Positions 969 to 58,510 of a stretch of 64,000 bases of DNA are shown here, in pieces. The notes below the pieces were generated by a model. The model saw only the letters and a list, made by a program, of their open reading frames with translations. It did no database searches and was not told the origin of the DNA. The translations under genes and the position numbers were made by a program. The DNA comes from Mustelus asterias (Eukaryota). How positions within the stretch are numbered: the first letter of the stretch is position 1; the number at the start of each line of letters is the position of its first letter. The stretch covers positions 70,494,001 through 70,558,000 of the forward strand of contig NC_135812.1 of assembly GCF_964213995.1 (NCBI RefSeq), in the 5' to 3' direction.

Positions 969-2345
969 GTGGTTGCTAATCAAAGAGGGTCTGGTGGACT
1001 GAAGTGCATTTGTTTCAATGCGAGAAGTGTAACAGGTAAGACAGATGAACTTAGAGCTTGGATTAGTACTAGGAACTATGATGTTGTTGCCATTACAGAG
1101 ACTTGGTTAAGGGAAGGACAGGATTGGCAGCTTAACATTCCAGGATACAGATGTTTCAGGCGGGATAGAGGGGGATGTAAAAGGGGTGGGGGAGTTCCAC
1201 TACTGGTTAAGGAGAATATCACAGCTGCACTGCAGGAGGACACCTCTGAGGGCTCATACAGCAAGGCAATATGGGTAGAGCTCAGGAATAGGAAGGGCAT
1301 AGTCACAATGTTGGGGGTTTACTATAGGCCACACAACTGCCAGTGGGAGATGGAGGAACAGATATGCAGGCAGATTTTGGCAAGATGTAAAAGTAACAGG
1401 GTTGTTGTGATGTGAGATTTTAATTTCCCCTATACTGACTGGGACTCACTTAGTGTCAGGCTTATGGATGGGGCAGAATTTGTAAGGAGCATCCAGAAGG
1501 GCTTCCTGAAACAGTATAGATGGTCAAACCAGGGAAGGAGCCATGCTGGACCTGGTATTGGGGAGTGAGCCCAGCCAGGTTTCCAACGTTTCAGTAGGGG
1601 AGCAGTTCAGGAATAGTGACTACAATTCAATAAGCTTCAAGGTACTGATGGATAAAGATAAGTGTAGTCATCAAGTTAAGGTGCTAAATTGGGGGAAGGC
1701 TAATTACAACAATAATTGGCAGGAACTGAAGAATGTAGATTGGGGCAGATGTTTGAGAGCAAATCAACATCTGGCATGTGGGAGGCTTTCAAATGTAAGT
1801 TGATAGGGATTCAGGACCAGCACAATCCTGTAAGGATGAAGGATAAGTGTGGCAAATTTTGCGAACCTTGGATAACGAGAGATATTGTGAGCCTAGTCAA
1901 AGAGAAAAAGGAAGTATTTGTCAAGGAGGGCTAAAAGGGGTCACAAAAAATCATTGGCCAGCAGAATTAAGGAAAATCCCAAGGCTTTTTATACATATAT
2001 AAAGAGCAAGAAGGTAGCCAGGGAGAGGGTTGGCCCACTCAAGGAAAGGGGAGGGAATCTATGTGTGGAGCCAGAAGAAATGGGCGAGGTATTAAATGAG
2101 TACTTTGCATCAGTATTCACCAAAGAAAAGGACTTGGTGGATGATGAGGCTGGGCAAGAGTGTGTAGATAGTTTGAGTCATGTTGAGATCATAAAGGAGG
2201 AAGTATTGGGGTTCTTGAGAAACATTAAGGTAGACAAGTCCCCAGAGCCCGATGGAATATACCCCAGAATACTGAGAGAGGCAAGGGAGGAAATTGCTGG
2301 GGCCTTGAGAGAAACCTTTGTATCCTCACTGGCTACAGGGGAGTT
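969..2345 (+). pseudogene. CR1 ORF2 endonuclease and linker, frameshifted
   Basis: Broken ORFs 969-1415, 1543-1803, 1716-1934 and 1918-2349, including LDLVL, KENPKAFYTY, LNEYFASVFT and KSPEPDGIYPRIL. Confidence 0.9.
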
Positions 2346-2440
2346 ATGATGTGGAGATGCCGGCGTTGGACTGGGGTAAGCACAATAAGAAGTCTCACAA
2401 CACCAGGTTAAAGTCCAACAGGTTTATTTGGTAGCAAATA

Positions 2441-2479
2441 CCATAAGCTTTCGGAGCGTGCTGCTCCTTCGTCAGATGG
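2441..2479 (-). ncRNA. Minimal hammerhead ribozyme, second copy on the opposite strand
   Basis: ccataagctttcggagcgtgctgctccttcgtcagatgg is the exact reverse complement of 4154-4192. Confidence 0.8.
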
Positions 2480-2687
2480 AGTGGTTATCTGTTCTCTAAC
2501 AGTGCACAGACACAGAAATCAAGTTACAGAATACTAATTAGAATGCAAATCTCTACAGCCAGCCAGGTCTTAAAAGGTACAGATAATGTGGTTGGAGGGA
2601 ACATTAAACACAGGTTAAAGAGATGTGCATTGTCTCCAGACAGAACAGCTGGTGAGATTATGCAAGACCAGGGGCAAGCTGTGGGGG

Positions 2688-3665
2688 TTACTGATAATGT
2701 GACATAAATCCAACATCCCGGTTTAGGCCGTCCTCATGTGTGCGGAACTTGGCTATCAGTTTCTGCTCAGCGACTCTGCGCTGTCGTGTGTCGTGAAGGC
2801 CGCCTTGGAGAATGCTTACCTGAAGATCCAAGGCTGAATGCCCGTGACTGCTGAAGTGCTCCCCCACAGGAAGAGAACAGTCTTGCCTGGTGATTGTTGA
2901 GCGGTGTTCATTCATCCGTTGTCGTAGCGTCTGCATGGTTTCACCAATGTACCATGCCTTGGGACATCCTTTCCTGCAGCATATCAGGTAGACAACGTTG
3001 GCCGAGTTGCAAGAGTATGTACCATGTACCTGGTAGATGGTGTTCTCACGTGAGATGATGTCATCCGTGTCGATGATCCGGCACGTCTTGCAGAGGTTGC
3101 TGTGGCAGGGTTGTGTGGTGTCATGGTCACAGTTCTCCTGAAGGCCGGGTAGTTTGCTGCGGACAATGGTCTGTTTGAGGTTGCGTGGTTGTTTGAAGGC
3201 AAGAAGTGGGGGTGTGGGGATGGCCTTGGCGAGATGTTCGTCTTCATCAATGACATGTTGAAGGCTCCGGAGGAGATGCCGTAGCTTCTCCGCTCCGGGG
3301 AAGTACTGGACAACGAAGGGTACTCTGTCCACCGTGTCCCGTGTTTGTCTTCTGAGGAGGTCGGTGCGGTTTTTCGTTGTGGCGCATCGGAACTGTTGAT
3401 CGATGAGTCGAGCACCATATCCTGTTCTTATGAGGGCATCTTTCAGCGTCTGGAGGTGTCTGTTGCGATCCTCCTCATCCGAACAGATCCTGTGCATTCG
3501 GAGGGCTTGTCCGCAGGGGATGGCTTCTTTTACGTGTTTAGGGTGAAAGCTGGAGAAGTGGAGCATCATGAGGCTATCCATGGGCTTGCGGTATAGTGAG
3601 GTGCTGAGGCGACCGTCCTTAATGGAGATGCGAGTGTCCAAGAATGCAACCGATTCCGGAGAGTA
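2688..3665 (-). CDS. Penelope-like RT C-terminus/thumb plus GIY-YIG endonuclease (5'-truncated, frame open)
   Basis: FLDTRISIKDGRLSTSLYRKP...SSFHPKH, CKTC, VVYLICC...WYIGET, RMNEH, AEQKLI...GLN; the ORF-track start at 3743 is read-through from the inverted arm. Confidence 0.9.
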   Translation of the reverse strand, partial: YSPESVAFLDTRISIKDGRLSTSLYRKPMDSLMMLHFSSFHPKHVKEAIPCGQALRMHRICSDEEDRNRHLQTLKDALIRTGYGARLIDQQFRCATTKNRTDLLRRQTRDTVDRVPFVVQYFPGAEKLRHLLRSLQHVIDEDEHLAKAIPTPPLLAFKQPRNLKQTIVRSKLPGLQENCDHDTTQPCHSNLCKTCRIIDTDDIISRENTIYQVHGTYSCNSANVVYLICCRKGCPKAWYIGETMQTLRQRMNEHRSTITRQDCSLPVGEHFSSHGHSALDLQVSILQGGLHDTRQRRVAEQKLIAKFRTHEDGLNRDVGFMSHYQ

Positions 3666-3676
3666 TGGTACCGAGA

Positions 3677-4250
3677 CATGGTACATTGGGGAAACCATGC
3701 AGACACTACGACAATGGATGAATGAACACCGCTCGACAATCACCAGGCAAGACTGTTCTCTTCCTGTGGGGGAGCACTTCAGCAGTCACGGGCATTCAGC
3801 CTTGGATCTTCAGGTAAGCATTCTCCAAGGCGGCCTTCACGACACACGACAGCGCAGAGTCGCTGAGCAGAAACTGATAGCCAAGTTCCGCACACATGAG
3901 GACGGCCTAAACCGGGATGTTGGATTTATGTCACATTATCAGTAACCCCCACAGCTTGCCCCTGGTCTTGCATAATCTCACCAGCTGTTCTGTCTGGAGA
4001 CAATACACATCTCTTTAACCTGTGTTTAATGTTCCCTCCAACCACATTATCTGTACCTTTTAAGACCTGGCTGGCTGTAGAGATTTGCATTCTAATTAGT
4101 ATTCTGTAACTTGATTTCTGTGTCTGTGCACTGTTGGAGAACAGATAACCACTCCATCTGACGAAGGAGCAGCACGCTCCGAAAGCTTATGGTATTTGCT
4201 ACCAAATAAACCTGTTGGACTTTAACCTGGTGTTGTGAGACTTCTTACTG
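3677..4250 (+). repeat. Inverted pseudo-LTR arm (574 bp), reverse complement of 2383-2956
   Basis: Same GIY-YIG C-terminus (WYIGET...MSHYQ) and 3' UTR on the opposite strand; about 7 mismatches counted by eye. Confidence 0.93.
4154..4192 (+). ncRNA. Minimal type I hammerhead ribozyme in the PLE pseudo-LTR
   Basis: CCAT-CTGACGA-A-GGAGC(agcac)GCTCC-GAAA-GCTTA-TGG: catalytic core, 5-bp stem II, palindromic AAGCTT stem III, CCA/TGG stem I. Confidence 0.8.
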
Positions 4251-4262
4251 TACAGGGGAGTT

Positions 4263-5449
4263 CCCAGAAGATTGGAGAATAGCCAATTTTGTTCCTTTGT
4301 TTAAGAAGGGTAGCAAGAATAATCCAGGTAATTACAGGCCGGTGAGCCTTACGTCAGTGGTAGGGAAATTATTGGAGAGGATTCTTCGAGACAGGATTTA
4401 CTCCCACTTGGAAATAAGTGGACGTATTAGCGAGAGGCAACATAGTTTTGTGAAGAGGAGGTCGTATCTCACTAACTTGATCGAGTTTTTCGAGGAAGTG
4501 ACGAAGATGATTGATGAGGGAAGGGCAGTGGATGTTGTCTACATGGACTTCAGTAAGGCTTTTGACAAGGTCCCTCATGGCAGACTGGTGCAGAAGGTGA
4601 AGTCACATGGGATCAGAGGTGAACTGACAAGGTGGATACAGAACTGCCTTGGTTGTAGAAGGGTACCAATGGAAGGGTGCGTTTCTGAATGGAGGGCTGT
4701 GACAAGTGGTGTTCCTCAGGGATCAGTGCTGGGACCTTTGCTGTTTGTAATATATATAGATAATTTGGAGGAAAATGTAACTGGTTTGATTAGTAAGTTT
4801 GCAGACGACACAAAGGTTGGTGGATTTGCGAATAGCGATGAGGACCATCAGAGGATACAGCAGGATATAGATCGGTTGGAGACTTGGGCGGAGAGATGGC
4901 AGATGGAGTTTAATCCGGACAAATGTGAGGTAATGCATTTTGGAAGATCTAATACAGAGAGGAAATATACAGTAAATGGTAGAACCCTTAGAGTATTGAT
5001 AGACAGAGTTATCTGGGTGTGTAGGTACACAGGTAACTGAAAGTGGAAAGCAGGTGGAGAAGGTAGTCAAGAAGGCATGCGAAATGCTTGCCTTCATCGG
5101 CCAGGGCATTGAGTTTAAAAATTGGCAAGTCATGTTGCAGCTTTATAGAACCTTAGTTAGGCCGCACTTGGAATATAGTGTTCAATTCTGGTCGCCACAC
5201 TACCAGAAGGATGTGGAGGCTTTGGAGAGGGCACAGAAAAGATTTACCAGGATGTTGCCTGGTATGGAGGGCATTAACTATGAGGAGAAGTTGGAGAAAC
5301 TTGGTTTTTTACCACTGGAAAGACGGAGGTTGAGGGGCGACCTGATAGAAGTCTACAAGATTATGAGGGGCATGGACAGAGTGAATAGTCAGAAGCTTTT
5401 TCCCATTGTGGAAGAGTCAATTACTAGGGGGCATAGGTTTAAGGTATGA
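4263..5449 (+). pseudogene. CR1 ORF2 reverse transcriptase, frameshifted
   Basis: ORFs 4297-5040 and 5054-5449 with QGSVLGP and FADD motifs. Confidence 0.92.
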
Positions 5450-10452: not shown

Positions 10453-10694
10453 TTTGCAGCAGAGAAACAGACCATTTGGTGTACTGTTGTTTAAGGCCCA
10501 CATGAGCCTTCTCCCACTTTATTTATTTCACTCTATCGGCACATTCTCCAATTCTGTTCCCCTTCATCTTTGTTACACTATTCACCTCAACTGTGGGAGT
10601 GAACATAAAGAAGAATATTATACCAGTTAAATATGGAAATTTTTGCTAGTCAGCTTTTGTTATGTTCTTTTATGTTAAAAGTCAAGTCAAGAAC

Positions 10695-11941
10695 TGTTAG
10701 AGTTCTTTGAAGAGATAACAAATAGGTTAGACCAAGGAGAGCCAATGGATGTTATCTATCTTGACTTCCAAAAGGCCTTTGACAAGGTGCCTCACGGGAG
10801 ACTGCTGAGTAAAATAAGGGCCCATGGTATTCGAGGCAAGGTACTAACATGGATTGACGATTGGCTGTCAGACAGAAGGCAGAGAGTTGGGATAAAAGGT
10901 TCTTTCTCAGAATGGCAACCGGTGACAAGTGGTGTCCCGCAGGGTTCAGTGTTGGGGCCACAGCTGTTCTCTTTATATATTAACGATCTAGATGACGGGA
11001 CTGGGGGCATTCTGGCCAAGTTTGCCGATGATACAAAGATAGGTGGAGGGGCAGGTAGTATTGAGGAGGTGGGGAGGCTGCAGAAAGATTTAGACAGTTT
11101 AGGAGAGTGGTCCAAGAAGTGGCTGATGAAATTCAACGTGGGCAAGTGCGAGGTCGTGCACTTTGGAAAAAAGAATAGAGGCATGGACTATTTTCTAAAC
11201 GGTGACAAAATTCATAATGCTAAAGTGCAAAGGGACTTGGGAGTCCTAGTCCAGGATTCTCTAAAGGTAAACTTGCAGGTTGAGTCCGTAATTAAGAAAG
11301 CAAATGTAATGTTGTCATTTATCTCAAGAGGCTTGGAATACAAAAGCAGGGATGTACTTCTGAGGCTTTATAAAGCACTGGTTAGGCCCCATTTGGAGTA
11401 CTGTGAGCAATTTTGGGCCCCACACCTCAGGAAGGACATACTGGCACTGGAGCGGGTCCAGCGGAGATTCACACGGATGATCCCAGGAATGGTAGGCCTG
11501 ACATACGATGAACGTCTGAGGATCGTGGGATTATATTCATTGGAGTTTAGGAGGTTGAGGGGAGATCTGATAGAGACTTACAAGATAATGAACGGCTTAG
11601 ATAGGATGGACGTAGGGAAGTTGTTTCCATTAGCAGGGGAGACTAGGACGCGGGGGCACAGCCTTAGAATAAAAGGGAGTCACTTTAGAACAGAGATGAG
11701 GAGAAATTTCTTCAGCCAGAGAGTGGTAGGTCTGTGGAATTCATTGCCACAGAGGGCTGTGGAGGCCAAGACGTTGAGCGTCTTCAAGACAGAAATTGAT
11801 AAATTCTTGATTTCTCGAGGAATTAAGGGCTATGGGGAGAGAGCGGGTAAATGGAGTTGAAATCAACCATGATTGAATGGTGGAGTGGACTCGATGGGCC
11901 GAATGGCCTTACTTCCGCTCCTATGTCTTATGGTCTTATGG
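10695..11941 (+). mobile_element. Young 5'-truncated CR1 LINE
   Basis: Uninterrupted ORF2 3' half, CR1 3' UTR stem (gatgggccgaatggcc) and tandem tail tcttatgg. Confidence 0.95.
10745..11860 (+). CDS. CR1 ORF2 reverse transcriptase C-terminal 371 aa (truncated retrocopy)
   Basis: YLDFQKAFDKV, GVPQGSVLGP, KFADDTK, LVRPHLEYC, RRNFFSQRVV. Confidence 0.92.
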   Translation: MDVIYLDFQKAFDKVPHGRLLSKIRAHGIRGKVLTWIDDWLSDRRQRVGIKGSFSEWQPVTSGVPQGSVLGPQLFSLYINDLDDGTGGILAKFADDTKIGGGAGSIEEVGRLQKDLDSLGEWSKKWLMKFNVGKCEVVHFGKKNRGMDYFLNGDKIHNAKVQRDLGVLVQDSLKVNLQVESVIKKANVMLSFISRGLEYKSRDVLLRLYKALVRPHLEYCEQFWAPHLRKDILALERVQRRFTRMIPGMVGLTYDERLRIVGLYSLEFRRLRGDLIETYKIMNGLDRMDVGKLFPLAGETRTRGHSLRIKGSHFRTEMRRNFFSQRVVGLWNSLPQRAVEAKTLSVFKTEIDKFLISRGIKGYGERAGKWS

Positions 11942-40179: not shown

Positions 40180-40757
40180 GTCTGGATTGTTTCTTGCTCG
40201 CTATACAGACAAAGCATACCGTAGGGGCGGCATGGTTGTTGGCACTGCTGCCTCACAGTGCCAGGGACCTGGGTTCGATTCCCAGCTCGTGTCTGCGTGG
40301 GTTTCCTCTGGGTGCTCCGGTTTCCTCCCACAGTCCAAAGATGTGCGGGTTAGGTGGATTGGCCATGCTAAATTGCCCTTCATGTCAGGGGGACTAGCTA
40401 AGGCAAATGCATGGGGTTATGGAGATAGGGCCTAGGTTGGGATTGTGGTCGGTGCAGTCTTGATAGGCTGAATGGCCTCCTTCTGCACTGTAGGGATTCC
40501 ATGATTCTATGATTCATAGTGAAGGAAAGGAGAAGGTGCAGAATGTAGTGTTACAGTCACAGCTAGGGTGTAGAGAAAGATCAACTTAATACGAGATGGA
40601 TCCATTCTTTTATCCATTCAAATGTCTGATGGCAGCAGGGAAGAAGCTGTTCTTGAGTCAGTTTGGTACGTGATCTCAGACTTTTGTATCTTTTTCCCGA
40701 TGGAAGCAGGTGGAAGAGAGAATGTCCAGGGTGTGTGGGGTCCTTGATTATGCTGCA
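40180..40757 (-). mobile_element. Rex1/Babar-like LINE 3' end interrupted by a V-SINE
   Basis: IIKDPTHPGHSLFHLLPSGKRYKSLRSRT in ORF 40581-40790. Confidence 0.82.
40224..40512 (+). mobile_element. HE1-type V-SINE with CR1-like tail
   Basis: ggttcgattcc B-box, V-core, tail. Confidence 0.9.
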
Positions 40758-41579
40758 TGACAATTTCACCAACATTGCAACAAAAAGCACGGTCCATCAT
40801 GTCTGACTTGTGTTCATAGAATGAGCTCAATACAGCAAAGAAGTTAGAAGGCTTTGACATTAACTGATAAATTATTAAGCAGGATTAATATTACAATCTC
40901 CGAGATGAATATGCGCAGAGTAATCAAATACCCCATGGACATTATTGACATGTATTAGGCCTATTGTAATGGTCTGCCTAAGGGCAAGTCTTCTGTTCGT
41001 TAATCCACGTCTTGCACTGTTGTACTTTTTCTTTGCAGTTGACTGTAAGAGCCTCTGATTTTCAATTCCAATAAGCACAGCTAGAGCAATGACTGATATG
41101 ACGGGAGAAAATAATATGAGGTGGTTTCCTCGTGCGTTTAAATAGAACACAATTCCTCTTCCCCAAGATCGCCTGCCAGTAAGCAGCCACGAGGTCCGAA
41201 CTCTTCCTTCCTCACCACTAAACATTCACTGATCCCACCATTGGCCATGGCTTATAACACAGAGCATGCGACCTTTAGCAGGACCTGAGGTGACTCCCAA
41301 AAAGGCAGAGATCACCACCACCTGAGGCCTGCAACCCTGCCATCATTTATTCCATTCAAAAACAATGGATGATCTGGCTAAATTGAGGTGTCGAATTTGG
41401 TTATCTTGCAGAAGTATGTAGCTATCATTAATTATTAACTGAATAAGTAATAAAAAGCTGCCCATCATCTTCCTCCTCCTCCCAGTTAATTCCAACACCC
41501 ACTATATAGAGCACTGGAAATTTGCAAAGAGCCCAAGAAGCCACAACCCAACATAAGCTGGCTGACACAGAAGTGGATT

Positions 41580-41965
41580 ATTTTTATTCATTCATGGGAT
41601 GTGGGCATCACTGGCTAGGCCAGCATATGTTGCCCATCCTTAGGAGAAGATGGTGGTTAGCCATCTTTTTGAACCACTGCAGTCAATGTGTTGTAGAAAC
41701 TCCGTAAGAAGTCTCACAACACCAGGTTAAAGTCCAACAGGTTTATTTGGTAGCAAATACCATTAGCTTTCGGAGCACTGCTCCTTCGTCAGATAGAGTG
41801 GAAATGTGCGGAAACTTCCACAGTGCTGTTAGGGAAGGAGTTCCAGGATTTTGACCGAGTGAAGGAATGGTATTTCCAAGTCAGGGTGAGGAGTGGCTTG
41901 GAGGAGAACTTACAGTTGATGGTGTTCCTTTGCATCTGATGCAGATGGTGGTGTTCCTATGCATC
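41580..41965 (-). mobile_element. CR1-group LINE 3' end (family of 35893-36640) hosting a PLE fragment
   Basis: tattcattcatgggatgtgggc...gttccaggattttgacc. Confidence 0.75.
41704..41810 (-). mobile_element. Penelope-like terminal fragment (~105 bp) containing the hammerhead motif
   Basis: gtaagaagtctcacaacaccagg...agctttcggagcactgctccttcgtcag matches 2385-2484. Confidence 0.88.
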
Positions 41966-42679
41966 TGGGAATGTTAGTTGTCTATTGCATCAGTACATTG
42001 ATTAATACATTGTGAATACACAACAGGACTGAAGTGGAAAATCTACAATGACAATGCAAAATAATGATGGTAATAATAATAATGGATGGAAGTGCCACAT
42101 TTTTGGGATGCGTATTAATGTCTTGTCTGTACAGATAAATATTAAAATGTCCAGCAGTTTTTGCAGGAAATTCTCCTGATTTCCCTCATTCAGCAAATAT
42201 GATGAGAAATAAATACTTGGCCACTCATCCTATATTGTATCTGAGTATTACTAGAGTACAAAAACGGCTGTGTTTGCTTACAAATGACTATGTTTGAGAG
42301 TAATTCATTGCGTGAAACACTTTGAGACATTTTCATGGCGTAAGGTGTAAGATAAACTCAAACATTGCAATAAAAGCAGGAGAAGCAATCTCTATTCCTC
42401 ATCTAATATACTTCCAGCAACAGAAAAAAAAAATTAAGAAATGTGGGACCAACTCCAAAGCTATTTTAATAAACTTACTTATTCTAAACAAAATGTATTT
42501 TTTTATTGGCTGGGGAAATATTTTTCCAATGAGCTTGAACTGGGTGACAGGTTTCTGGAAATTATTCTGGCTAACGGATAAAAACAGGCACTAACGAGTT
42601 TATAAAAAGACACAGTTATTTGTAAGTCTGGATTTGGCACACAATTTTGGCCCTAATTGCTGATTACTATTATTTAATT

Positions 42680-43017
42680 TATTTATTCATTTGTGGGACA
42701 TGGGCATCGCTGGCTGGGCCAGCATTTATTGCCCATCCCTAGTTGCCCTTGGAGGGCAGTTGAGAGTCACATGTAGGCCAGACCAGGTAATGACAGCTGA
42801 TTTCCTTCCCTAAAGGACATTAGTGAACCAAATGGGTTTTTATGACAATTGACAATGGTTTCATAGTCATCAGTAGATTCTTATTTCCAGATTTTTTTTC
42901 TATTGAATTCAAATTCCACTGTCTGCCGTGGCGGAATTCGAATTTGGGTCTCCAGATCATTAGCTGAGTTTCTGGATTAATAGTCTAGCAATAATACCAC
43001 TGAGCCATCACCTCCCC
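42680..43017 (-). mobile_element. tRNA-derived Deu-domain SINE (SacSINE1-like)
   Basis: Head gggaggtgatggctcagtgg...ttcgaattcc; Deu-like ggttcactaatgtcctttagggaaggaaa...ctggtctggcctacatgtgactc; tail shared with the CR1-group LINE. Confidence 0.75.
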
Positions 43018-43097
43018 TATTTGAACTTACTTGATGGTGCCAAAGCATAAACCTACAGGTTTAGCGCTCAAGCACTGATTAGATGCTATTTTTGTGT

Positions 43098-43151
43098 GCG
43101 AGCTTGCGTGTGTGCGTGCGTGCGTGCATGCGTGTGTGTGCATGTGTGTGT
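43098..43151. repeat. (TG/CG)n microsatellite
   Basis: gcgtgtgtgcgtgcgtgcgtgcatgcgtgtgtgtgcatgtgtgtg. Confidence 0.85.
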
Positions 43152-43466
43152 ACCCCTCACACCCACTTCCACTGAAGACGTGGCATCTACTAACTGATGC
43201 ACAACAGCTTGGTGCAAGATAGCTCAAAGACTGACAGAGATGGCACACAGATCCTGGGACAGGAGGTCCAGAGGACGAGAGCCATAGGGGATCAGGAGGA
43301 CACCTTACTCTCCTCTCCTCCTCATCCTCCATTCCCTCTCTCCAGCAGCATCTGATACTATTCTGCCTGATTTCACATCCCTTCACATTCCTTGTCCAGA
43401 CATCAGGGATACCTAGCAAGATGGCTAAGACCAAGCTCCCCCTTTCTGCTCGTGACTTTCTGCTAG

Positions 43467-43770
43467 GGGGACGACACAGTGCCACTGCAGCCTCACAACA
43501 ACAGTGACCCGGGTTCAATTCTGGCCTCGGATGACTGTCTGTGTGGAGTTCATTCGTTCTCCCAGTGTCTGCATGGGTTTCCTTCGGGTGCTCCAGTTTT
43601 CTCCCACACTCCAAAGATGTGTGGTTTAAGTTGATTGGCCATGCTAAATTGCCCATTAGTATCAGGGGGATTAACTGGGTAAATATGTGGGGTTATGGGT
43701 GGGATTGTTGTCAGTTCAGGATTGATGGGCTGAATGGCCTCATTCTGCATTGTAGGGATTCTATGATACT
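43467..43770 (+). mobile_element. HE1-type V-SINE with CR1-like tail
   Basis: V-core and tail present. Confidence 0.85.
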
Positions 43771-44856
43771 GTGACTTATATAAGGTGCAATAGCACAGCC
43801 CCTATTCTTTACTTAGGTGAAGTCTTCAAAAGATTTGTGGAATAATATTGTCCAAGTGTTGCTGAAGTCCTGGACAGTTCCCAACGAGTTTCTGAGATTC
43901 TCTTCACAGCTGCAGAGACAAGTGAACAAGAATTGATGAGTACCCCTTTAAGTCGCACTTGTAATTCACACCAACACCTTGTTTATTCCCGGATAGCTGA
44001 GGTCGGATTCTCATACATTGAATCGGGCTGGCATAGAGGTGGGCGGTCAAAAGGTATGGCACTGGTAGAGCATCGATGAACCAACTCTGACAACAGTTGT
44101 GAGGGTGGGGAGGAGGGGAGAACAGGAAAGTGAAGTCAACCACCTGGATAATTGGGCACATTTAAATAATTAAGTCACTCATTAAGAACTCACCTTCTAA
44201 CGTCCCAATATGTTTTAGGGCTGCTGACCTTTCTGAGCGGAAGAGCTCCAACCTGTCAGGGAACAGTTTTGACAGCATATCAATAGGTCTTGTGCGGTCT
44301 TAAAAAGTGCAAGTTTTGATGAAAATCTATTGTGCAGCATTGAAATTTTTTAAAATCCTGACATTACCCCACCCTGTCCCAATTCCAATTCTCCATTTGC
44401 CCTGATCAATTGGAAGATGCAGATTCTTCCCTTAATGAATGCTGGCAGGCACTTTAAGTGGCTATCAGCCCTTTCATGAGCCTCCGGGTGATTATTCTCA
44501 CAGGCTTCACCTATTTTATGAAGACAGCGCTAAATTTGGGAAATTGGCATTGGTTCCCAAGTCTCCATCCAGCCACCTCAAAGGCTACTTAGGACCTGAA
44601 TGCACTGCCAGTATTTGCCCCCATTGTCATCTTCATCTTCAATTTGAAATTCTCATTTTACGCCAAAGATTACTGTTCCTAATATTAAAGGACAGATACC
44701 AAGCCACTTACATGGCATTTCTCTATCCGTTATCATAGCAGGCATATCAATGTGTTAAAAATAAATGACACTTGCTTTAACCTGGCTGAGATTGGGATGT
44801 CACACGGAAGGATTGAGCATAGGCTAACATAATTTCTATACCTGTAGCTGTCCCGA

Positions 44857-45163
44857 TTATAGAATCCCTACAGTGAAGAAGGAGGACATTCAGCACATTG
44901 AGCCTGCACTGACAACAATTCTACCGAAACCACAACCCCGTAACCCTACGTATTTATCCTGACAATAAGGGTCAATTTAGCATGGTCAATCAACCTAACC
45001 TGCACATCTTTGGAGTGTGGGAGGAAACCAGAACACCCAAAGGAAACCCACACAAGTATGAGGAGAATGTGCAAACTCCATACAGTCACACAAGGCCAGA
45101 ATTGAACCCGGATCCCTCGTGCTGTGTGGCAGCAGTGTTAACCACTGTGCCACCATGCCGCCC
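44857..45163 (-). mobile_element. HE1-type V-SINE with CR1-like tail, diverged
   Basis: Head, V-core and tail present. Confidence 0.85.
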
Positions 45164-45902
45164 AATTCTTGCCAGCTATTTCACCATTTGACTAACAGTG
45201 ACCAAGCTGGTGTGAATGAACTCGGGTTTGCATTGCCAATCATTGCAGAAAGGTGGAGAAATCTGAGAGGGCGCAGGAACAAATTGTGCCCTAACTATTA
45301 GAAGGAACTAATTCAGCAGAGCAAAGAAAAAAAATGGACGGATGATGGATGAAGGGGAAGAAATTACTTGACAACGTGAGATTGATTTCAAAGATCCACC
45401 GTTCATAAACTAATTGGAGGCCTAAATATTCCCAATCCTTCCTTCCTTGATCTCCACTTACGTATTACTCATGGGAATTTTACAACTCCTGGAACTTCAG
45501 CTCTCAATTACACCTGAGTCTGTGCTTGAAGGTAACGAGAGAAGGGATGGTACCTTGGAATGTTTCTTCTCAATTATATTATTTCTGACTAAAACTATTT
45601 TCTGAAATTCTAACTGGTCAACAACTAGCTGAATGAGCTTGGAGTGAGTACTAAATTCAAACTGGTTCAAAAGTGTGTTCTGTTTCAAATTGTTTTGTTA
45701 TTTTGGTGTATCCCTGCTTATACAAAATGGTGCCGTAGAGGCACAGAGGGATACTTGGATACTCGCTTCATATGGACATTCTTTTATGGGTAATTCTCCA
45801 ATGTGACCAGCAGTATTAAAACTAATTAATTTATTACTAATTAATTAATTTATAAGTTCTATGTTATGTTGCTTCATCGATAGAAACTAACTTCAAGGAC
45901 CC

Positions 45903-46050
45903 TAGAATCATAGAATCATTATCATTGAATCCCTACAGTGCAGAAGGAGGCAATTCAGCCCATTAAGGCTGCACCGACTCTCCGAAAGAGCACCTTACCC
46001 AGGCCCCACTCTATCCGTAACCCCGCACATTTACCATGGTTAATCCGCCA
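45903..46050 (-). mobile_element. SINE 3' tail fragment
   Basis: atcatagaatc...ccctacagtgcagaaggaggc. Confidence 0.75.
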
Positions 46051-46949
46051 TTTAGTTGCAAACTGCTATTGGAGACAATAGGATAAAAACAAAGCCTGAG
46101 TCAGGACATTAGGCAGAGAATTCATTTTTTAAAAATTTTGCCTTGCTCTTGAAGTATGACCATGGATTGATCTGCAAAATCCTTGCTATTCCTTGCCGTT
46201 ATTCATTGTTACTTGCTCTTGTTGTGGAGTGAACTGACCTCTTCAAAAGTGAATTATCTGTTTGAAGAAGGTTTTCTCTCATTGCGGACTCGACAAATCA
46301 TTTTAATTGTTATTTAAGACTCAGTTGGTGCTCACTTTTCAGCTGTTGGCCAGATAACAGACACAGTTACATTATGTAACCTTCACACTGTAGCAGGTAG
46401 AAGCGACAGGTAGCTTGGTTTTAACATTGGGAAGTTAGTCCACATCGCGGCTGCATTTCACAAGAGGGATAAAAACAGTCTGTTAATCCTTAACTGATAT
46501 TATTTTTTTCTCTTCCAAATCTGCATCCTTAACTGTTGCTTTCCAGGTCTTTTTTTTTCTCTCTGAAAGCATTTCTCAGTAATTTACAGCACCCGAAAAA
46601 GCGTGCTATTACCTAATGTTCTATTCACAAGACTCAGGGGACCTGCTTGTTTCTTAGCAACCAGCGTGATCTACAGATTCATTTACGTGTTAGTGATGTT
46701 TTTACTTCACCACTCTTATCGTCTCTGCAAACACATTTGGAAAATAAAACTCCAAAGATCTACAAAGTGAATTAAATCTGGGGTGCAAGGAAAATGGTTC
46801 CCCCTTCTTATTGGCTAAAAATGTGCCCCATCACTTATTTGATTTCAAATCTAGCAAAGTGGAAATCAATGTTCACACACGGTTGTGTTTAACCATTCGG
46901 GTGGCAGCGTCTGCTGAAGTTGCATCATCCTGTCACACTGGCATTTCTG

Positions 46950-47355
46950 GTGGCGGCATGGTGGCACAGTGGTTAGCACTGCTGCTTCACAGAGCAGGGA
47001 CCCTGGTTTGATTCTTGGCTTGGGTCACTGTCTGTGTGGAGCCTGCACGTTCTCCCCGTGTCTGCATGGGTTTCCTCTGGGTGTTTCAGTTTCCTCCCAC
47101 AGTCCGGAAGACGTGCTGGTTAGGTACATTGACGTGCTAAATTCTCCCCGTGTCTGCGTGGGTTTCCTCTGGGTGTTCCAGTTTCCTCCCACAGTCCGGA
47201 AGACGTGCTGGTTAGGTACATTGGCCATGCTAAATTCTCCCTCAGTGTACCCAAACAGGTGTCGGAGTGTGGCGACTAGGGGATTTTCACAGTAACTTCA
47301 TTGCAGTGTTAATGTAAGCCTACTTGCGACACTAATAATAAATAAAGTTAAACTT
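46950..47355 (+). mobile_element. HE1-type V-SINE with type-b tail and internal tandem duplication of the V-core
   Basis: 47051-47142 repeated from 47143. Confidence 0.9.
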
Positions 47356-47945: not shown

Positions 47946-48404
47946 CAGTGATGATGTTGAGTTTATCCATTGAACCTGATGCTGATACTAAACACCAAAG
48001 TCTCACTCGACCTTGACCTTATATTCTGTTAAATATCCAAGTGTGTATAAGATGTCGAAAAATGTGTATTGTTGTAATGCATTCCATGAAGTAATTTAGA
48101 AATGTTACTTTCAAAGATCACATTTTAAATTTGAGTCACTGCCCTCTTCATGATTATCTACAAATTACAAGATATTTTCACAGTTACATAGATATCATAA
48201 TATAAAGAAGCGAGTTATTCAGCCCAATGATGGTGTTTATTTTCCATGTGAGCAGTATCCTAATCTCATATTGCCACCTTGTCTCTGCTTTCTAATATAC
48301 TTTTAAATGTAGGGGATAACAGGCAGAATTTAGCATCTCCCTAGGGTGAATTTGGAGGCAGAGGGCATTTGATGTAGCAAAATGGTATAAAGTGGAGTCC
48401 CTAC

Positions 48405-48701
48405 TGATGCGCGATTAAATCACTCGGGAGGCTAGATTGTACCCGGGAAATAAAGGCTTTTATTACTGACAAGAATGGAGCACACTATATACAATACAAT
48501 CCCAGACTAAAGGGTCACCAGGCAGTGCAGTGACCTTTATACTTCCCCTGGTAGGCGGAGCCAACTGGAGTGTACCACAGAACAATATCAACAGGTAGAA
48601 CAGCCCAACCCTAACACCAACAGTAACATATCTACAAACCCCATAGTGCTGACCATCCATGGCTCAGCACTCATAGTGGTAACCAACTATGGTTCACCAC
48701 A
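48405..48701 (-). repeat. 3' LTR
   Basis: Direct repeat of 52793-53089; AATAAA (minus strand) at 48459-48464. Confidence 0.97.
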
Positions 48702-48715
48702 TTCACCCCTCCTTT
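48702..48715 (-). other. Polypurine tract
   Basis: AAAGGAGGGGTGAA immediately upstream of the 3' LTR. Confidence 0.9.
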
Positions 48716-48766
48716 AAAAACAGAGGCTGGTGGGGCAAAAGAAACCCAGAATAACTGTTCATATAA

Positions 48767-51700
48767 TCACAAGTTCAGTCGTATTGGAGGACCGCACCGT
48801 CTCTGCGACCTCCTCAACACTGGCGGTAATGCCGGTTCTGGTGACCGTGGTGACCTTCTCTCCAAGGCGGTGTCCAGTGACTCCTCCAGTTCCTCACGGA
48901 CAGGTGGACCACGAGGTGGCGACAATCTGCTGGACTCGAGCACGCCTCGAGGTGGTGACAATCTCCTGGACTCAGGCAAGCTGTACACGGGAGTAAGAGG
49001 ATTAAGTGGTGGTCCCGATACTGCCCGCGCCGTGTCAGGAGGGGAGATAAGGGTCGGGGGGCCCCTACCTAGGGGTGTGGGAGCAACTGGGGTGTCCAAG
49101 TCCCCTGCTGGCACCAGATCTCTAATAGAGACCGTGTCCCCTTACCCGTCAGGATATGCCACATAGGCATATTGAGGGTTGGCGTGGAGGAGATGGACCT
49201 GTTCAACCAAAGGGTCAGACTTGCGGGTCCTAACATGCCGCCGCAGGAGGACAGGTCCTGAGTGCGTCAACCAAGACTGTAATGAGGTCCCAGAGGAAGA
49301 CTTCCTAGGGAAGGTAAACATCCTCTCATGTGGAGTAGCGTTGGTTGCCGTACACAGGAGTGAGCGGATAGAATGGAGCACATCAGAGAGTACCTCTTGC
49401 CAACGGGAGACTGGAAGACCTTTAGACCTCAACGCCAGTAAGACAGCCTTCCAGACTGTAGCATTTTCTCGTTCAACCTGTCCGTTACCCCTAGGGTTGT
49501 AACTCGTAGTTCTGCTTGAGGCAATCCCTTTTGAGAGCAGGTATTGCCTCAAGTCGTCACTCATGAATGATGAGCCCCTATCACTGTGGATATAGCTGGG
49601 GTAACCGAACAGGGTGAAAAGATCCCGTAATGCTTTGATAACCGTGGCAGTGGTCGTATCAGAACAGGGAATGACAAAAGGGAATCGTGAATACTCGTCA
49701 ATCACATTGAGGAAGTACACGTTCCGATCTGTCGAAGGAAGGGGGCCCTTGAAGTCCACACTCAGTCTTTCGAAAGGGCGAGTGGCTTTAATGAGGAGTG
49801 CCCTGTCAGGTCGGTAGAAGTGCGGTTTGCATTCAGCACATACCTGGCAGCTTCGGGTTATGGACCTGACATCCTCCACTGAGTAGGGTAGATTCCAGGC
49901 CTTTACGAAATGGAAGAGCCGAGTGACCCCCGGATGGCAGAGATCATTGTGGAGAGTCTGTAATCGATTCTCCTGCACACTTGCACATGTTCCACGCGAC
50001 AGGGCGTCTGAGGGCTCATTGAGCTTCCCTGGACGGTACATGATATCATAATTGTAGGTGGAGAGTTCGATTCTCCACCTCAAGATTTTATCATTTTTGA
50101 TCTTACCCCGTAACGTGTTGTTGAACATGAACGCCACGGACCGCTGGTCCATGAGCAGGGTGAATCGTTTTCCCGCCAAGTAATGGCGCCAATGCCGAAC
50201 GGCCTCCACAATGGCCTGGGCCTCCTTTTCCACCGCAGAGTGTCGAATTTCGGGGCCTTGGAGGGTGCGAGAGAAAAAGGCGACGGACCTGCCCGCCTGG
50301 TTAAGTGTGGCGATCAAGGCGAAATCAGATGCATCACTCTCCAGCTGAAAGGGGATGGACTCATCAACAGCGTGCATCGTGGCTTTCGCGATGTCGGCTT
50401 TTATCCCTTCAAAGGCTAAGCGAGCCTCTGTTGCTAGGGGAAAGGAGGTAGACTTGATGAGCGGACGGGCTTTGTCCGCATAATTGGGAACCCACTGTGC
50501 ATAGTATGAGAAGAAGCCTAAGCATCTTCTCAGTGCTTTGATGCTAGTGGGCAGAGGAAGTTCCAGTAGGGGACGCATGCGGTCTGGATCAGGGCCAAGG
50601 ACCCCGTTTTCCACCACATATCCGAGAATTGCTAAACGGCGCTTGTGAAATATGCACTTCTCCCTGTTGTAGGTCAGATTCAGGCGAGACGCAGTGCGTA
50701 AAAATCTAAGGAGGTTGGCATCGTGGTCCTACTGGTCATGGCCGCAGATAGTGACGTTATCCAGGTACGGGAAGGTAGCCCGCAGCCCGTTTTGGTCCAC
50801 CATTCAGTCCATTGCACGCTGGAAGACCGAGACCCCATTCGTGACGCCAAAGGGAACCCTTAAAAAGTGATAAAGGCGACCATCCGCCTCAAAGGCCGTG
50901 TATTTTCGGTCCTCTGGGCGAATGGGGAGCTGGTGGTAAGCTGACTTCAAGTCAATGGTGGAGAACACCCGCTACTGCGCAATCTGGTTGACCATGTCAG
51001 ATATGCGCGGGAGAGGATACGCATCCAGCTGCGTGTATCTATTAATGGTCTGACTATAGTCTATGACCATCCGGGGTTTGTGTCCAGTTTTAACCACCAC
51101 TACTTGCGCTCTCCATGGACTAGAGCTAGGTTGGATGATCCCTTCCTTGAGGAGCCGCTGAACCTCAGATCGAATAAAGATCCGATCCTCAGCGTTGTAA
51201 CGCCTGCTCTTGGTTGCGATGGGCTTGCAGCCTGGCACTAGATTCTCGAATAAGGATGGTGGGGTGATTCTGAGTGTCGAGAGGCTACACGTGGAGCGCG
51301 CTGGGCAATTTGGAGGCTGCGGTGCTCCCACTGAAAGTGGAGGGAGCAGTCCATCGTACTGCAGGGTTACACTCCTCAGGTGGACCATAAAGTCTAGTCC
51401 CAGGAGCATCGGAGCGCAAAGGTGCGGTAACACAAGGAGCCTGAAGTTCTCGTAAACTGTGCCCCGCACCGTCAGGTTGACCATGCAGCTCCCTAGCATG
51501 GTAACAGACCGGGACCTCGACGCCATCGAAATTGTCTGTCTGACAGTCCGTACTCGGAGACCGCACCATTTCACGGTGTCAGGGTGAATGAAACTCTCCG
51601 TGCTCCCGCTGTCAAACAAACAATGAATTTGGCGTCCATTTACCTCTATGTCCATCATGGACTTGTCGAGTCTGTGAGGCTTGGCCTGGTCCAGGATGAT

Positions 51701-52153
51701 TGACGCCCCCGTTGGATCTTGGGTGCCGCTGCAGGCAGCTGAGATGGTTGATGATGATGACCCCTGCTGGTCGTCCGCGGTCGGTGCCGACCAAAATGGC
51801 TGCGCCCATGGATCGCACGTGGTCGGTGTCGCTAAAAGTGGCGGCCCCTGCAGGTCGCACATGTCTTGCGTCTCCGTCGTCAGGAATGGCGGCGCTCTGG
51901 AATCGCACGTGGTGGAAGACCGCGAAGACGCTGGAGACAAGGAGACAGGCTCAGGAGAATCACACGCTGCACTGCTATGTTTGGAGGGTGGTTTGGTCCT
52001 ACAGACTTTGGCATAATGCCCTTTCTTTCTGCACGCGGAGCACAATACCATTCTGGCTGGACATCGTTGCCGAGGGTGTTTCGCCAATCCACAGAAGTAA
52101 CACCGCGGGCCTCCTGGAGCTGCCGCCGTCGTCAGGTCCGAGGTTGGGAACAC
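48767..52153 (-). pseudogene. Gypsy pol (twin CCHC knuckles, protease, RT, RNase H, integrase) with four in-frame stops
   Basis: CYFCGLAKHPRQRC/CSACRKKGHYAKVC; LFDSGST; IDLKSAYHQ; YLDN; ESDASD; HSDRG...GNGQVER; stops at 50972-50974, 50804-50806, 50729-50731 and 49142-49144. Confidence 0.93.
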
Positions 52154-52772
52154 AATCGCGCAGTTTTTCGGAGCCGCTGAATAAAGTAGTCGGTGGCTGT
52201 AATTGCCACGATGTTCCCACGTGGTCGGTGGGGTACGTTTCTAGGCTTCTGGAGGCCGTCTCCATAGCGTCAGCCAATTCTACTGTCTTAGCGAGGTCTA
52301 GGTTACCTTGCTCTAACAGCCGGAGGCGAATGTACGACGAGCCGATTCCCGCCACGAACGCATCGCGGATCAAGTCACTCGTATACTGGGCCGCCGACAC
52401 TGACTTGCAATTGCAGGCTCTGGCTAGCTGCTGGAGTTCACCCGGGTACTGTTCAGTCATTTTGCCGGGCTGCCGCCGTCGAGTGGCTAGAAGGTGTCGA
52501 GCATGGATCTCGTTTGGCGGTTTGTTGTACCGCTTCTTAAGTCGTTCGATGGCCCCCTTGTAGTCTTGGGCATCGCGGATTGCTAAGTATATGGTGTCGC
52601 TTACCCTCGCGTGGAGGACCCGCAGTCTATCGTCGTCGTTTTGAATGGCTGTTGAGGCATCGATGTAGTCTTGAAAACACTTTAACCAATGGTCGAAAGT
52701 GTTCGACGCTCCTGCTGCACGTGGATCTAAAGTAAGCCGATCGGGTTTTAACATTTGCTCCATGGTTTTCAA
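51999..52772 (-). CDS. Gypsy gag; frame changes to the knuckle/pol frame near 52150-52200
   Basis: MLKPDRLTLDP...HWLKCF, ARHLLATRRRQPG, IRDAFVAGIGSSYIRLRLLE. Confidence 0.85.
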   Translation of the reverse strand: MKTMEQMLKPDRLTLDPRAAGASNTFDHWLKCFQDYIDASTAIQNDDDRLRVLHARVSDTIYLAIRDAQDYKGAIERLKKRYNKPPNEIHARHLLATRRRQPGKMTEQYPGELQQLARACNCKSVSAAQYTSDLIRDAFVAGIGSSYIRLRLLEQGNLDLAKTVELADAMETASRSLETYPTDHVGTSWQLQPPTTLFSGSEKLRDCVPNLGPDDGGSSRRPAVLLLWIGETPSATMSSQNGIVLRVQKERALCQSL

Positions 52773-52773
52773 A

Positions 52774-52791
52774 ATTCTGTCAGTAATAAAA
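52774..52791 (-). other. Non-tRNA primer-binding site complementary to the element's own LTR
   Basis: Minus-strand TTTTATTACTGACA(GAAT) begins 1 nt after the 5' LTR and pairs with 52846-52864; no TGG. Confidence 0.75.
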
Positions 52792-52792
52792 T

Positions 52793-53089
52793 TGATGCAC
52801 GATTAAATCACTCGGGAGGCTAGATTGTACCCGGGAAATAAAGGCTTTTATTACTGACAAGAATGGAGCACACTATATACAATACAATCCCAGACTAAAG
52901 GGTCTCCAGGCAGTGCAGTGACCTTTATACTTCCCCTGGTAGGCGGAGCCAACTGGAGTGTACCACAGAACAATATCAACAGGTAGAACAGCCCAACCCT
53001 AACACCAACAGTAACATATCTACAAACCCCATAGTGCTGACCATCCATGGCTCAGCACTCATAGTGGTAACCAACTATGGTTCACCACA
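52793..53089 (-). repeat. 5' LTR
   Basis: Direct repeat of 48405-48701. Confidence 0.97.
52924..52929 (-). promoter_or_regulatory. Putative LTR TATA box
   Basis: TATAAA on the minus strand about 70 nt upstream of the LTR AATAAA. Confidence 0.55.
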
Positions 53090-53129
53090 CCTACTTCCTT
53101 CCCACCTCCATCTGGTTAAGTCTGAGCGT

Positions 53130-55495: not shown

Positions 55496-55629
55496 TCAAG
55501 TGGCTAAATCTTTAAACTTATCTGCTTTACAAAAGCTAGCACCATAAGAAATGGGGTTGAGGGGATGTGGGGGATGGCTTCCTTTTCCCCAACTCTCCTG
55601 CACTCAACTGAAAGACTTGGGATCCTGCT

Positions 55630-57790
55630 GCAGTATGCAATTGCATTTAAAGGTGTCATTCTCAGATGTAACATTGCAATGTATAGATCTTCCTCGGTCT
55701 GTCTACATTTGAGAATGAAAGGTTTCACCATTAATTCACCCTGACCATTAGACCTAGAGTAATGAGGTGAAGAAGTAGTGTGATCGATATTCCACTTCTC
55801 GCACATATCCTGAAATGGCTTATCAATAAATTGTGGACTGTTAGCTAAAGTGAAATCTCTAGGCACACCTAATAAATTGAAAATCGCATTTTGAGTATAT
55901 GTGACAGTTTTGCTTGATGTATCGTGCGGTCGTTTAATAATGGGGTACCTGGGAAAAGTAGCTGATAAAGTCGGCACCATGGACATGAAAAAGGCCAAAA
56001 GGACCAAGGATGGTGAGGAACGTCATATGGAATCAATGGAATCAGTGGAATCAGATTTGTGCTGACTTGATATTTTCTCTTTGGGTGGCACAGTGGCACA
56101 GTGGTTAGCACTGCTGCCTCACAGCGCCACGGACCCGTGTTCAATTCCAGCCTCGGGTCATTGGCTGTGTGGAGTTTGCACATTCTCCCCGTGTCTGCGT
56201 GGGTTTCCTCCGGGCGCTCCGGTTTCCTCCCACAGTTCAAAGATGTGCAGGCTAGGTTGATTGGCCATGCAAAATTGATCCTAGTGTCAGGGGGATTAGC
56301 AAGGTAAATATGTGGGGTTACGGGAATAGGATCTGGGTGGGATTGTGGGACTCGATGAGCCAAATGGCCTCCTTCTGCACTGTAGGGGTTCTGTGATTCT
56401 TGACATGCCTCGCACTTCTTGACAATGACTTCAATGTCATTGCTCATACCTAGCCAAGAAACTGTTTCTCTTTCTTCTTGTCCAATCTGTGTCTACATGT
56501 GAGTGGAGAAGTTGTTAAAGAATATCAGTTTACAAAGACTCAGGTACAATGGCCTGCCATTAAAAATGACTCTGGAGGAGATGCCCAGCTTGTCCTGATG
56601 AAGCTAAAATAGCCTCATGTTCTGAATTGAACCACGCTATCCTTCAGTGATTGTCTTCCTCAGTTTCTGCAGTATGGAATCTTTCACAATTTCTTCTTGT
56701 AGCTGCTGGCACTTGTGCTGTGCAAAATATACCAGATCAATTTGGAGAACATCTTAAAGTTTAACGCCAATCAAATCAGTTTATAGATCTAAAGATATAT
56801 CTTCTGTTTTCACTGGGTTAGGCAACTCGCTAAGTGTATCTGCTATGATTATCAACTTACCTGACTTGTACCTAATCTCACTGTCTTTATCAAGGGATAT
56901 TGCAAACTTGATGGGACACAGGTCAATGGTTTTCATCAAATCATTTCTGTGATATAGATGCATCCTGGTACATCCATGTGAGCTTGAATGATGTCCTGGC
57001 TAACCGAGTGCCCAACAGGAAGTAATTATAAGCAATATTGTCCAAATTGGGGTATAAAACTCATTAGGCTATCCAGACCCCTCCACGAGATGTACTAATC
57101 AAAACCTTGCTTGGCATCAAGCTTCAAAAAGAATTTTGCATCTCTAAATCTCTGATTCAATTCTTCTAATGTGGGAACAATGTGTCAAGACTACATTTAA
57201 AAATCATGGATCGAGTCATACTCTCAATGATCTGCCCTTCTTTATGACCATGTGATAGTCTGTAAGCTCTTGCACTTTTCCAATGATTCCATCTTTTTCC
57301 ATTTTGTCTAGAGCAACCTTCAGTTTGGCTTGTATGTGAATGCTGAGCTTACGCCATAGTTCAATCGACAGACTTACATTGCCCTGCAAGTGCAGTGTTG
57401 CAGCTCCCTGGAAACTGCCAGGCTTGTCGAAACATTCTGGATATTTTGATGTTAGATTGTGAGCTGAGGTGACAGGAGTAACTTCCGAGGTTGAGCTGCC
57501 CTGTGATATCTGACTGTTTCCATCAATTGTTGCCAATGCGAGGTGTTGATATGCCGGTAGACCTGCAATCGCTGGGCCATTCAGTCCCACAGAGTAGACA
57601 CCCAGGAGGATTAATTATACTTGTACTCCAGGATTGTGGATCCTGCACATGGAATTATGCTGAAAGTTTCACAGCGGTAGGTTTCGTCATAACTTTCCCT
57701 GTTTGTGGGTACATGTCTTTTGGAATTTGCCCTTGCCTCTATCTTGGTCAAGAACGAATAGTTACCAACTTTCTTGGAAACGTGATTTGA
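55630..57790 (-). mobile_element. Decayed Ty3/Gypsy pol relic (RT and integrase)
   Basis: NSPQF...WNIDHTTSSPHYSRSNGQGE (integrase, ORF 55504-56007); KYPECFDKPGSF...LDKMEKDGIIGKV (ORF 57216-57590). Confidence 0.8.
56083..56400 (+). mobile_element. HE1-type V-SINE with CR1-like tail, inside the Gypsy integrase
   Basis: Full head, V-core and tail. Confidence 0.92.
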
Positions 57791-58197
57791 ATCTTGACAA
57801 AGGATTCCAAGGGTGTGAAGAAACTCAGCATATTACCAAAGAAAATAAATATATTATCATAAAATATTGTCAACATTTTTCTTTCTGTGGCTGATGGAGT
57901 TCACTCTTAAGCCCCTTAGAGCTATTAGGTAGCAGCAAAAACTATTGGGTTTCCCACGTCACCCATATACAAAAACTAAACTAAAAATCTAATTAATCTC
58001 CTATCAGATATTCTGCATTTAATGAATAAATAAAATACTGTGGATGCTGAAAATCTGGAACAAAATCAGAAGAAGAGTCATATTGGACTTGAAATGAGAA
58101 GCAGGATTTTTCTCCCTCTCCATGGTGTCTTTCACAGTGACAGGAGGCAGCATGCCGCTCACTGGCAGCAGTATTGTATGGTCCTGCTGCTGTCAAT

Positions 58198-58510
58198 GGG
58201 GCAGCACGGTGGCACAGTGGTTTGCATTGCTGCCTCACAGCGCCAGAGACCAGGGTTTAATTCCCGGCTTGGGTCACTATCTGTGTGAAGTCTGCATATT
58301 CTCCCCGTGTCTTCGTGGGTTTCCTCCAGGTGCTCCAGTTTCCTCCCACAGTCCGAAAGACGTGCTGGTTAGGTGGATAGGTCATGCTAAATTCTCCCTC
58401 AGTATACCCGAACAGGTGCCGGAGTGTGACGACTAGCGGATTTTCACAGTAACTTCATTGCAGTGTTAATGTAAGCCTACTTGTGACCATGAATAAATAA
58501 ACTTTAAAAA
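58198..58510 (+). mobile_element. HE1-type V-SINE with type-b tail, inside a MITE
   Basis: Full head, V-core and type-b tail. Confidence 0.92.

Follow-up and report, generated by a model that had tools for sequence, protein, structure and literature searches.

A young but broken Gypsy element, located on the minus strand at positions 48405–53089 of a 64,000-nucleotide (nt) stretch of the Mustelus asterias genome (contig NC_135812.1, positions 70,494,001–70,558,000; the whole stretch is referred to below as the window), belongs to a widespread animal clade, and probably uses its own RNA, and not a transfer RNA (tRNA), as the primer of reverse transcription. On the evidence of nucleotide sequences, a real and clade-wide self-complementary primer site is well supported, and self-priming is likely. 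The duplex between the primer site and the long terminal repeat (LTR), its fixed register (one base past the LTR end at one side, an AAA/RCC junction at the other) and the covariation of the two partners are direct observations.

In the window copy, the terminal CA of the 5' LTR is followed by a single A (52792), and then by TTTTATTACTGACA (52778–52791). As the earlier note on this DNA had claimed, TGG is missing from this site, and TTTTATTACTGACA is the exact complement of a 14-nt LTR stretch (52846–52859); a run of this length was reached by chance in 1 of 20,000 shuffled LTRs. Two further claims of that note, that the partner contains a polyadenylation (poly(A)) hexamer and that its 3' end is directed towards the unique 5' (U5) region, were borne out as well: AATAAA at 52847–52852 is the sole AWTAAA of the LTR and sits inside the paired stretch, the 3' end of the partner points to U5, and the primer site is one base away from the LTR end. 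The 4-base pair (bp) extension of the duplex over a bulge (52774–52777 with 52861–52864), also described there, does exist in the window copy, but depends on a G at 52777 that is private to it, and was ruled out as a family feature because all 29 other copies examined carry an A. In 28 of these 29 sister copies, the A lengthens the duplex to a perfect 15 bp, and thus the family duplex is 15 bp long. The family search of the host genome with the leader yielded 3,698 candidates, 40 of which were scored; 20 copies were fetched, and the target-site duplication (TSD) was 5 bp long in all 13 family copies with blindly called ends. Two loci of the host genome, C1:67234483-67236256 (L485) and C1:156480980-156482753 (L490), have LTR pairs only 1.74 kb apart, with the primer site and gag start intact in both, and possibly represent a non-autonomous deletion lineage.

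Relatives of the element at 55–82% identity were found, among the matches listed, in rays, sharks, sea anemones, a soft coral, a tunicate, crustaceans, a mussel and Trichuris, the nearest named ones being from rays and a catshark. No chromodomain was seen among the matches listed (120 rows in each of two relative searches), and no relatives were found in viral contigs. The loci fetched were 78 from metagenomes (marine contigs), nine from genome bins that are contaminated and 60 from other sub-families within the host genome. Two bins labelled bacterial (G003 and G004) gave more than 100 Gypsy RNase H matches each and contain full eukaryotic LTR elements, which indicates heavy host contamination of these bins. 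For the blind test, LTR ends were set by TG...CA and the TSD, pairing was ignored, and the score was a perfect run of at least 11 nt. The test scored 43 of 127 clade loci, the other 84 being without two LTRs and a TSD or without a matching reverse transcriptase (RT). Such runs were present in 37 of the 43 clade members (13/13 family copies, 9/11 copies of other sub-families and 15/19 metagenome elements) versus none of the 21 control Gypsy elements from other clades that could be scored out of 40, 20 of which have TGG. Of the six misses, four are due to mis-called ends or repeats, one to a decayed pair and one to deletion of the site. The TSD was 5 bp long in 41 of the 43 blind calls.

Comparison of distant members revealed that pairing is maintained while the sequence changes. 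In 18 distant families, 176 of the 180 pairs at positions 4–13 match, while permutation of the partners gave 98 on average and 131 at most, and none of 100,000 draws reached 176. All of the 31 representatives have different primer sites, and a full match was found in 0 of 930 non-cognate pairings. The duplex begins one base past the LTR end in 18/18 distant families, so that both the geometry and the one-base spacer are fixed; it is 12–17 bp long in most of them and is directly followed by RCC in 16 of the 18. Pairing, which the earlier note had described from the window, is therefore kept in related copies, both at these 176 positions and in the 37 blind members. In the best-pairing set, seven further loci reached 8–9 of 13, and another six yielded no result; in most of these weak loci the 5' LTR is missing from the relevant side of the contig, and the remainder include one with a deleted site and L086. 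One distant member (L107:130-200) breaks the AAA/RCC rule, with a duplex ending AAAT/TTC and a T spacer, and retains 12 perfect pairs.

Coupled changes were also observed within families. A G>A change at pair 11 is found in 32 primer sites of the host genome, and the matching C>T in the LTR partner is present in all 30 of the fetched G>A copies; no other fixed difference separates these copies from the main lineage between partner and site. The double change arose once and was passed on to many copies. Viewed from the LTR, C>T is accompanied by the matching site in 15 of 17 two-LTR copies. At pair 10, the one variant copy is uncompensated. Compared with its sister L104, the metagenome copy L095 shows only six differences in 720 nt, and these include a double change found in both LTRs as well as in the site. 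According to the available part of one source, Tf1 complementary DNA often retains the copied primer site (PMC11042837). Such fast coupling would be explained if the primer were copied into the new site, and selection or recombination also fit. The asymmetry between site-only changes (0/30) and LTR-only changes (2/17) fits primer copying, but also G-U wobble selection or recombination between sub-lineages, and is not proof. At C1:39205633-39210276 of the host genome (L029), the 5' LTR has the main-lineage base and the 3' LTR the variant base at the variable pair; this mixed LTR pair reflects mutation, conversion or a recombinant. Because clade-wide covariation, the blind test against controls and the coupled change within the family agree, it is strongly supported, at the level of sequence comparison, that self-complementarity replaces the tRNA site across the clade.

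The start of transcription was predicted from conserved motifs. The TATA box TATAAAG (52923–52929, minus strand) corresponds to TATAWA at −83 to −85 from the primer end in 7/12 shark sub-family representatives, and the initiator-like TTAGTC (52893–52898, minus strand; predicted start A at 52896) corresponds to YYAGTY at −51 to −55 in 9/12. This spacing suggests a start near 52896, about 37 nt ahead of the paired stretch. The position of the partner downstream of the start, as proposed earlier, is thus strengthened by conserved spacing in shark sub-families, but the start is only predicted, since a second TATA-like motif is located at −34 in the window's family and the TATA/initiator pattern was not seen in the invertebrate families. 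In the family leader, the cis duplex was predicted with P of 0.86–1.0 across the 15 pairs, and pairing between the sequence that follows the primer site and a region upstream of the primer was restricted to sharks. A possible second helix involves 8 nt (52863–52870, minus strand) complementary to the gag start (52756–52763), and in sharks the mean energy of the gag-start helix is −13.3 versus −8.3 kcal for shuffled sequences. Pairing of the LTR with the gag AUG was rejected as a clade feature, with p 0.64 for invertebrates and p 0.11 for sharks, where it is without covariation.

Based on these data, the following course of priming may be proposed. Transcription would start near 52896, and 13–15 nt ending in AAA would fold onto the primer-binding site, which follows the spacer 52792 on the minus strand and is without TGG (52778–52791); the predicted self-primer (52846–52859, minus strand) is its complement and contains the AATAAA. 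By analogy with Tf1, the RNase H encoded by the element is the most likely nuclease to cut at AAA/GCC, that is, at the conserved AAA/RCC junction (52843–52846, minus strand), the predicted cut site and 3' end of the primer. The capped fragment upstream of the cut, about 51 nt long, would then prime copying of the U5 side, the 53 nt from the duplex to the LTR end (52793–52845, minus strand) being the predicted template of minus-strand strong-stop DNA, and the new DNA would jump to the 3' repeat. In the window copy, a CA occurs 21 nt after the hexamer, and in 13/13 shark rows it occurs 15–24 nt after it, so that about 20 nt of overlap would remain for this first strand jump. As a side effect, the fold would conceal AAUAAA in the 5' LTR, whereas the copy in the 3' LTR would stay accessible.

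Most Gypsy elements use a tRNA, as 20 of the 21 controls with TGG illustrate, and the site might likewise be used by a tRNA or tRNA fragment, with the LTR match being secondary. This is highly improbable, as the 31 distinct primer sites of the 31 representatives each fit their own LTR, and the best tRNA complement was only 5–7 nt for 13 shark primer sites, versus 11 nt for a control site, in a host set of 33 sequences of seven amino-acid types, whose incompleteness leaves tRNA priming some room. The earlier view that the element has no tRNA site is thus upheld insofar as no long match was found within these 33 tRNAs. Outside the majority LTR context, the 14-mer occurs 57 times, versus 69 times for the reversed control; 30 of these loci were examined, and four are copies of the element while none holds a tRNA. 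An Rfam search returned two weak chance matches only. Chance, or a functionless local inverted duplication, might be considered because the stretch is A/T-rich, but the shuffling result, the fixed register across the clade and the compensatory changes leave it a negligible probability; it is already refuted by the covariation.

Two other explanations accept the duplex and differ in what it does. It could be purely regulatory, masking the poly(A) signal of the 5' LTR (and the gag AUG in sharks) while another RNA or a protein primes. AWTAAA does lie inside the paired stretch in 12/12 shark representatives and 11/18 distant families, with the CA 15–24 nt downstream in the shark rows, and it is plausible from these positions that the duplex masks the signal, recalling the poly(A) hairpin of HIV-1. 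As the sole role, however, masking is quite unlikely: seven of the 18 distant families keep the duplex without the hexamer in it (two of the seven have the hexamer downstream, outside the duplex), the duplex always begins one base past the LTR end, the position that a primer has to occupy, and no alternative primer site was seen. The main rival is a trimmed LTR RNA acting in trans. According to this explanation, a short transcript of a 5' or solo LTR, or the 3' repeat of genomic RNA, would be trimmed by an exonuclease down to the duplex, and no cut of the 5' leader would take place. The 3' LTR contains the same stretch, as do many solo LTRs (one variant alone accounts for 1,016 LTRs), all three unpaired LTRs that were checked are without a primer site, the primer ends in A's, and identical covariation would be predicted. 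On the other hand, the cis duplex, given its predicted pairing probabilities, would form first, the conserved RCC past the duplex suggests a recognised junction, and the precedent of Tf1 is cleavage in cis; priming in trans is therefore the less probable route, although it deserves more weight than a purely regulatory duplex.

Several results weigh against self-priming by a cleaved leader. Covariation speaks for a duplex that is needed, not for the use made of it, and in the covariation set the register was chosen by maximal pairing, unlike in the blind version. The blind test, in turn, was limited to the 43 of 127 clade loci that had both LTRs and a TSD, and missed six of the 43. Two of the 17 two-LTR copies with C>T keep the old G primer site. 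The start, cut and poly(A) sites, as well as primer-linked DNA, are sequence predictions. A stem often starts right after the primer (the base is paired in 23/30 folds), a count that has no shuffle control. Lastly, as far as described in the accessible part of PMC10085805, Tf1 is primed by the 5' end of its RNA, and two additional duplexes involve sequence downstream of this primer, whereas an internal primer is predicted for the Mustelus clade, and the Tf1-type three-duplex fold was not found in the predicted leader folds.

The anatomy of the window copy, all on the minus strand, is that of a Ty3/Gypsy element. The 5' LTR is 297 bp long (TG...CA; 52793–53089) and differs at 2 of 297 sites from the 3' LTR (48405–48701); the LTRs of sister copies are 306–308 bp long. 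The 3' LTR has the same hexamer at 48459–48464, and no primer site 3' of it. The TSD GTAGG (5 bp) is located at 53090–53094 and 48400–48404, and the polypurine tract at 48702–48715. The gag-pol region (48767–52763), broken into several open frames, encodes twin CCHC motifs, protease, RT, RNase H and integrase. The order of the domains from protease to integrase, together with the TG...CA LTRs, TSD and polypurine tract, places the element in Ty3/Gypsy, and the nearest solved structure to its protein is Ty3 Gag-Pol (E 1e-59). The twin CCHC motifs and 5-bp TSD listed in the earlier note were confirmed, and no chromodomain was found in the window frames, again in agreement with it.

Elsewhere in the window, a decayed remnant of a different Gypsy element with integrase- and RT-like fragments occupies 55504–57614, and is, judged by motifs, presumably Mag-like. 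Fragments of CR1-like long interspersed elements and many copies of repeats resembling short interspersed elements are found at 918–5040, 10679–11860, 40186–47330 and 56081–58487. Inside the CR1-like fragments, a 365-amino acid (aa) frame (2688–3785, minus strand) resembles, by its motifs, the tail of a Penelope-type RT together with a GIY-YIG nuclease.

The place of the clade was examined in trees of the RT–RNase H region, with outgroup labels assigned from domain order, TSD and known primer sites; the rows include no Tf1, sushi, Mag or Cigr-1 reference, and three plant proteins stood in as chromoviruses. The second tree dropped 20 near-duplicate or long rows of the first, the third (a quick mixture tree) had 38 rows and the fourth 36. 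The clade received a support of 100 and has its own long branch (0.9–1.4 changes per site). It was sister to three Mag-like rows with supports of 85, 92 and 97 in three trees, and 69 in the fourth, with two long rows omitted. The free trees set the clade apart from the three plant rows, but in the approximately unbiased (AU) test neither union with these chromovirus rows (p 0.38) nor union with CsRN1-like rows (p 0.47) was rejected. The label "Mag-like" of the earlier note is thus weakly supported, being favoured in three trees and weakened by the fourth and by the AU result. As for the independent lineage suggested there, the AU test leaves union with the plant rows standing and, as the trees hold no Tf1 or sushi row, an independent origin is not demonstrated. 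No chromodomain-bearing Gypsy was found in the host genome, where six of 17 chromodomain matches were checked and had no retrotransposon frame. A second, independent invention of self-priming in Gypsy, extending from cnidarians to sharks, can only be suggested tentatively; one helix of 13–15 bp would then serve as primer, as mask of the 5' poly(A) signal and as template rewriting the primer site in each cycle, so that primer and site would drift together, free of host tRNA.

The Mag lineage is defined by twin CCHC motifs, a 5-bp TSD and the absence of a chromodomain, and the clade shares these features, as well as a single gag-pol frame, with the Mag A, B and C/SURL clades. In contrast, the Mag-like controls have TGG primer sites, while the Mustelus clade is without a tRNA site and is found on its own long branch. 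Cigr-1 is the likeliest existing name for the clade, a suggestion made from host range and sizes and not from sequence comparison; the LTR of about 245 bp and frame of about 1,210 aa attributed to Cigr-1 fit the clade. The host range of the Cigr-1 clade (Ciona, molluscs and annelids), as given in the available parts of PMC6238403 and PMC8556966, which are silent on its primer site, fits too, with tunicate and mussel proteins among the matches listed. The Saci2/lennie clade of flatworms is similar in its single gag-pol frame and variable primer sites, but differs from the Mustelus clade, with its 5-bp TSD, in having a 4-bp TSD, frames mostly of about 1,400 aa and tRNA-assigned sites, according to the part of PMC12471100 available.

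Tf1/Tf2 of S. pombe, Tj1 and Tosmo are likewise Gypsy elements with no tRNA site and with a primer site complementary to their own LTR, and Tf1 self-priming requires an RNA cut to free the 3' end, as stated in the accessible portions of PMC10085805, PMC4600332 and PMC5341516. Tf1/sushi elements are described there as having a chromodomain, a primer at the RNA 5' end and a three-duplex "pretzel", whereas the Mustelus clade has twin CCHC motifs and no chromodomain, and its primer is predicted to lie about 37 nt inside the RNA, to pair over 13–17 bp, and to have a poly(A)-type hexamer at its end, at the conserved AAA/RCC junction. The clade probably works like Tf1, yet lacks the chromodomain that is a criterion of the Tf1/sushi group. 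Self-priming has also been predicted from LTR complementarity for Tcn1 (plant Gypsy) and TAR/Houba/Osr-1 (plant Copia), and TAR shows that the trait is not confined to Tf1/sushi (PMC6317226); these elements differ in hosts and lineages, and the part of that source available mentions no overlap with a poly(A) signal.

According to the available parts of the literature, self-priming in Gypsy is tied to the Tf1/sushi chromovirus group (PMC10085805, PMC4600332, PMC5341516). A literature search, with Repbase, GyDB, Butler 2001 and Simmen and Bird 2000 outside its scope, did not turn up any report of an animal Gypsy clade outside the chromoviruses that primes itself. Both the AAA/RCC cut and the capped primer of 51 nt are sharp, testable predictions, and the element's family in the host genome is both large and young. 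Tools that seek a tRNA site will score such elements as having no primer site. If self-priming is true, these elements are independent of host tRNA, and a large self-priming clade without a chromodomain, present in sharks, rays, tunicates, crustaceans, molluscs, cnidarians and a nematode, would extend the known range of this mode of priming and inform the question of a single ancestral versus a repeated origin of hairpin priming.
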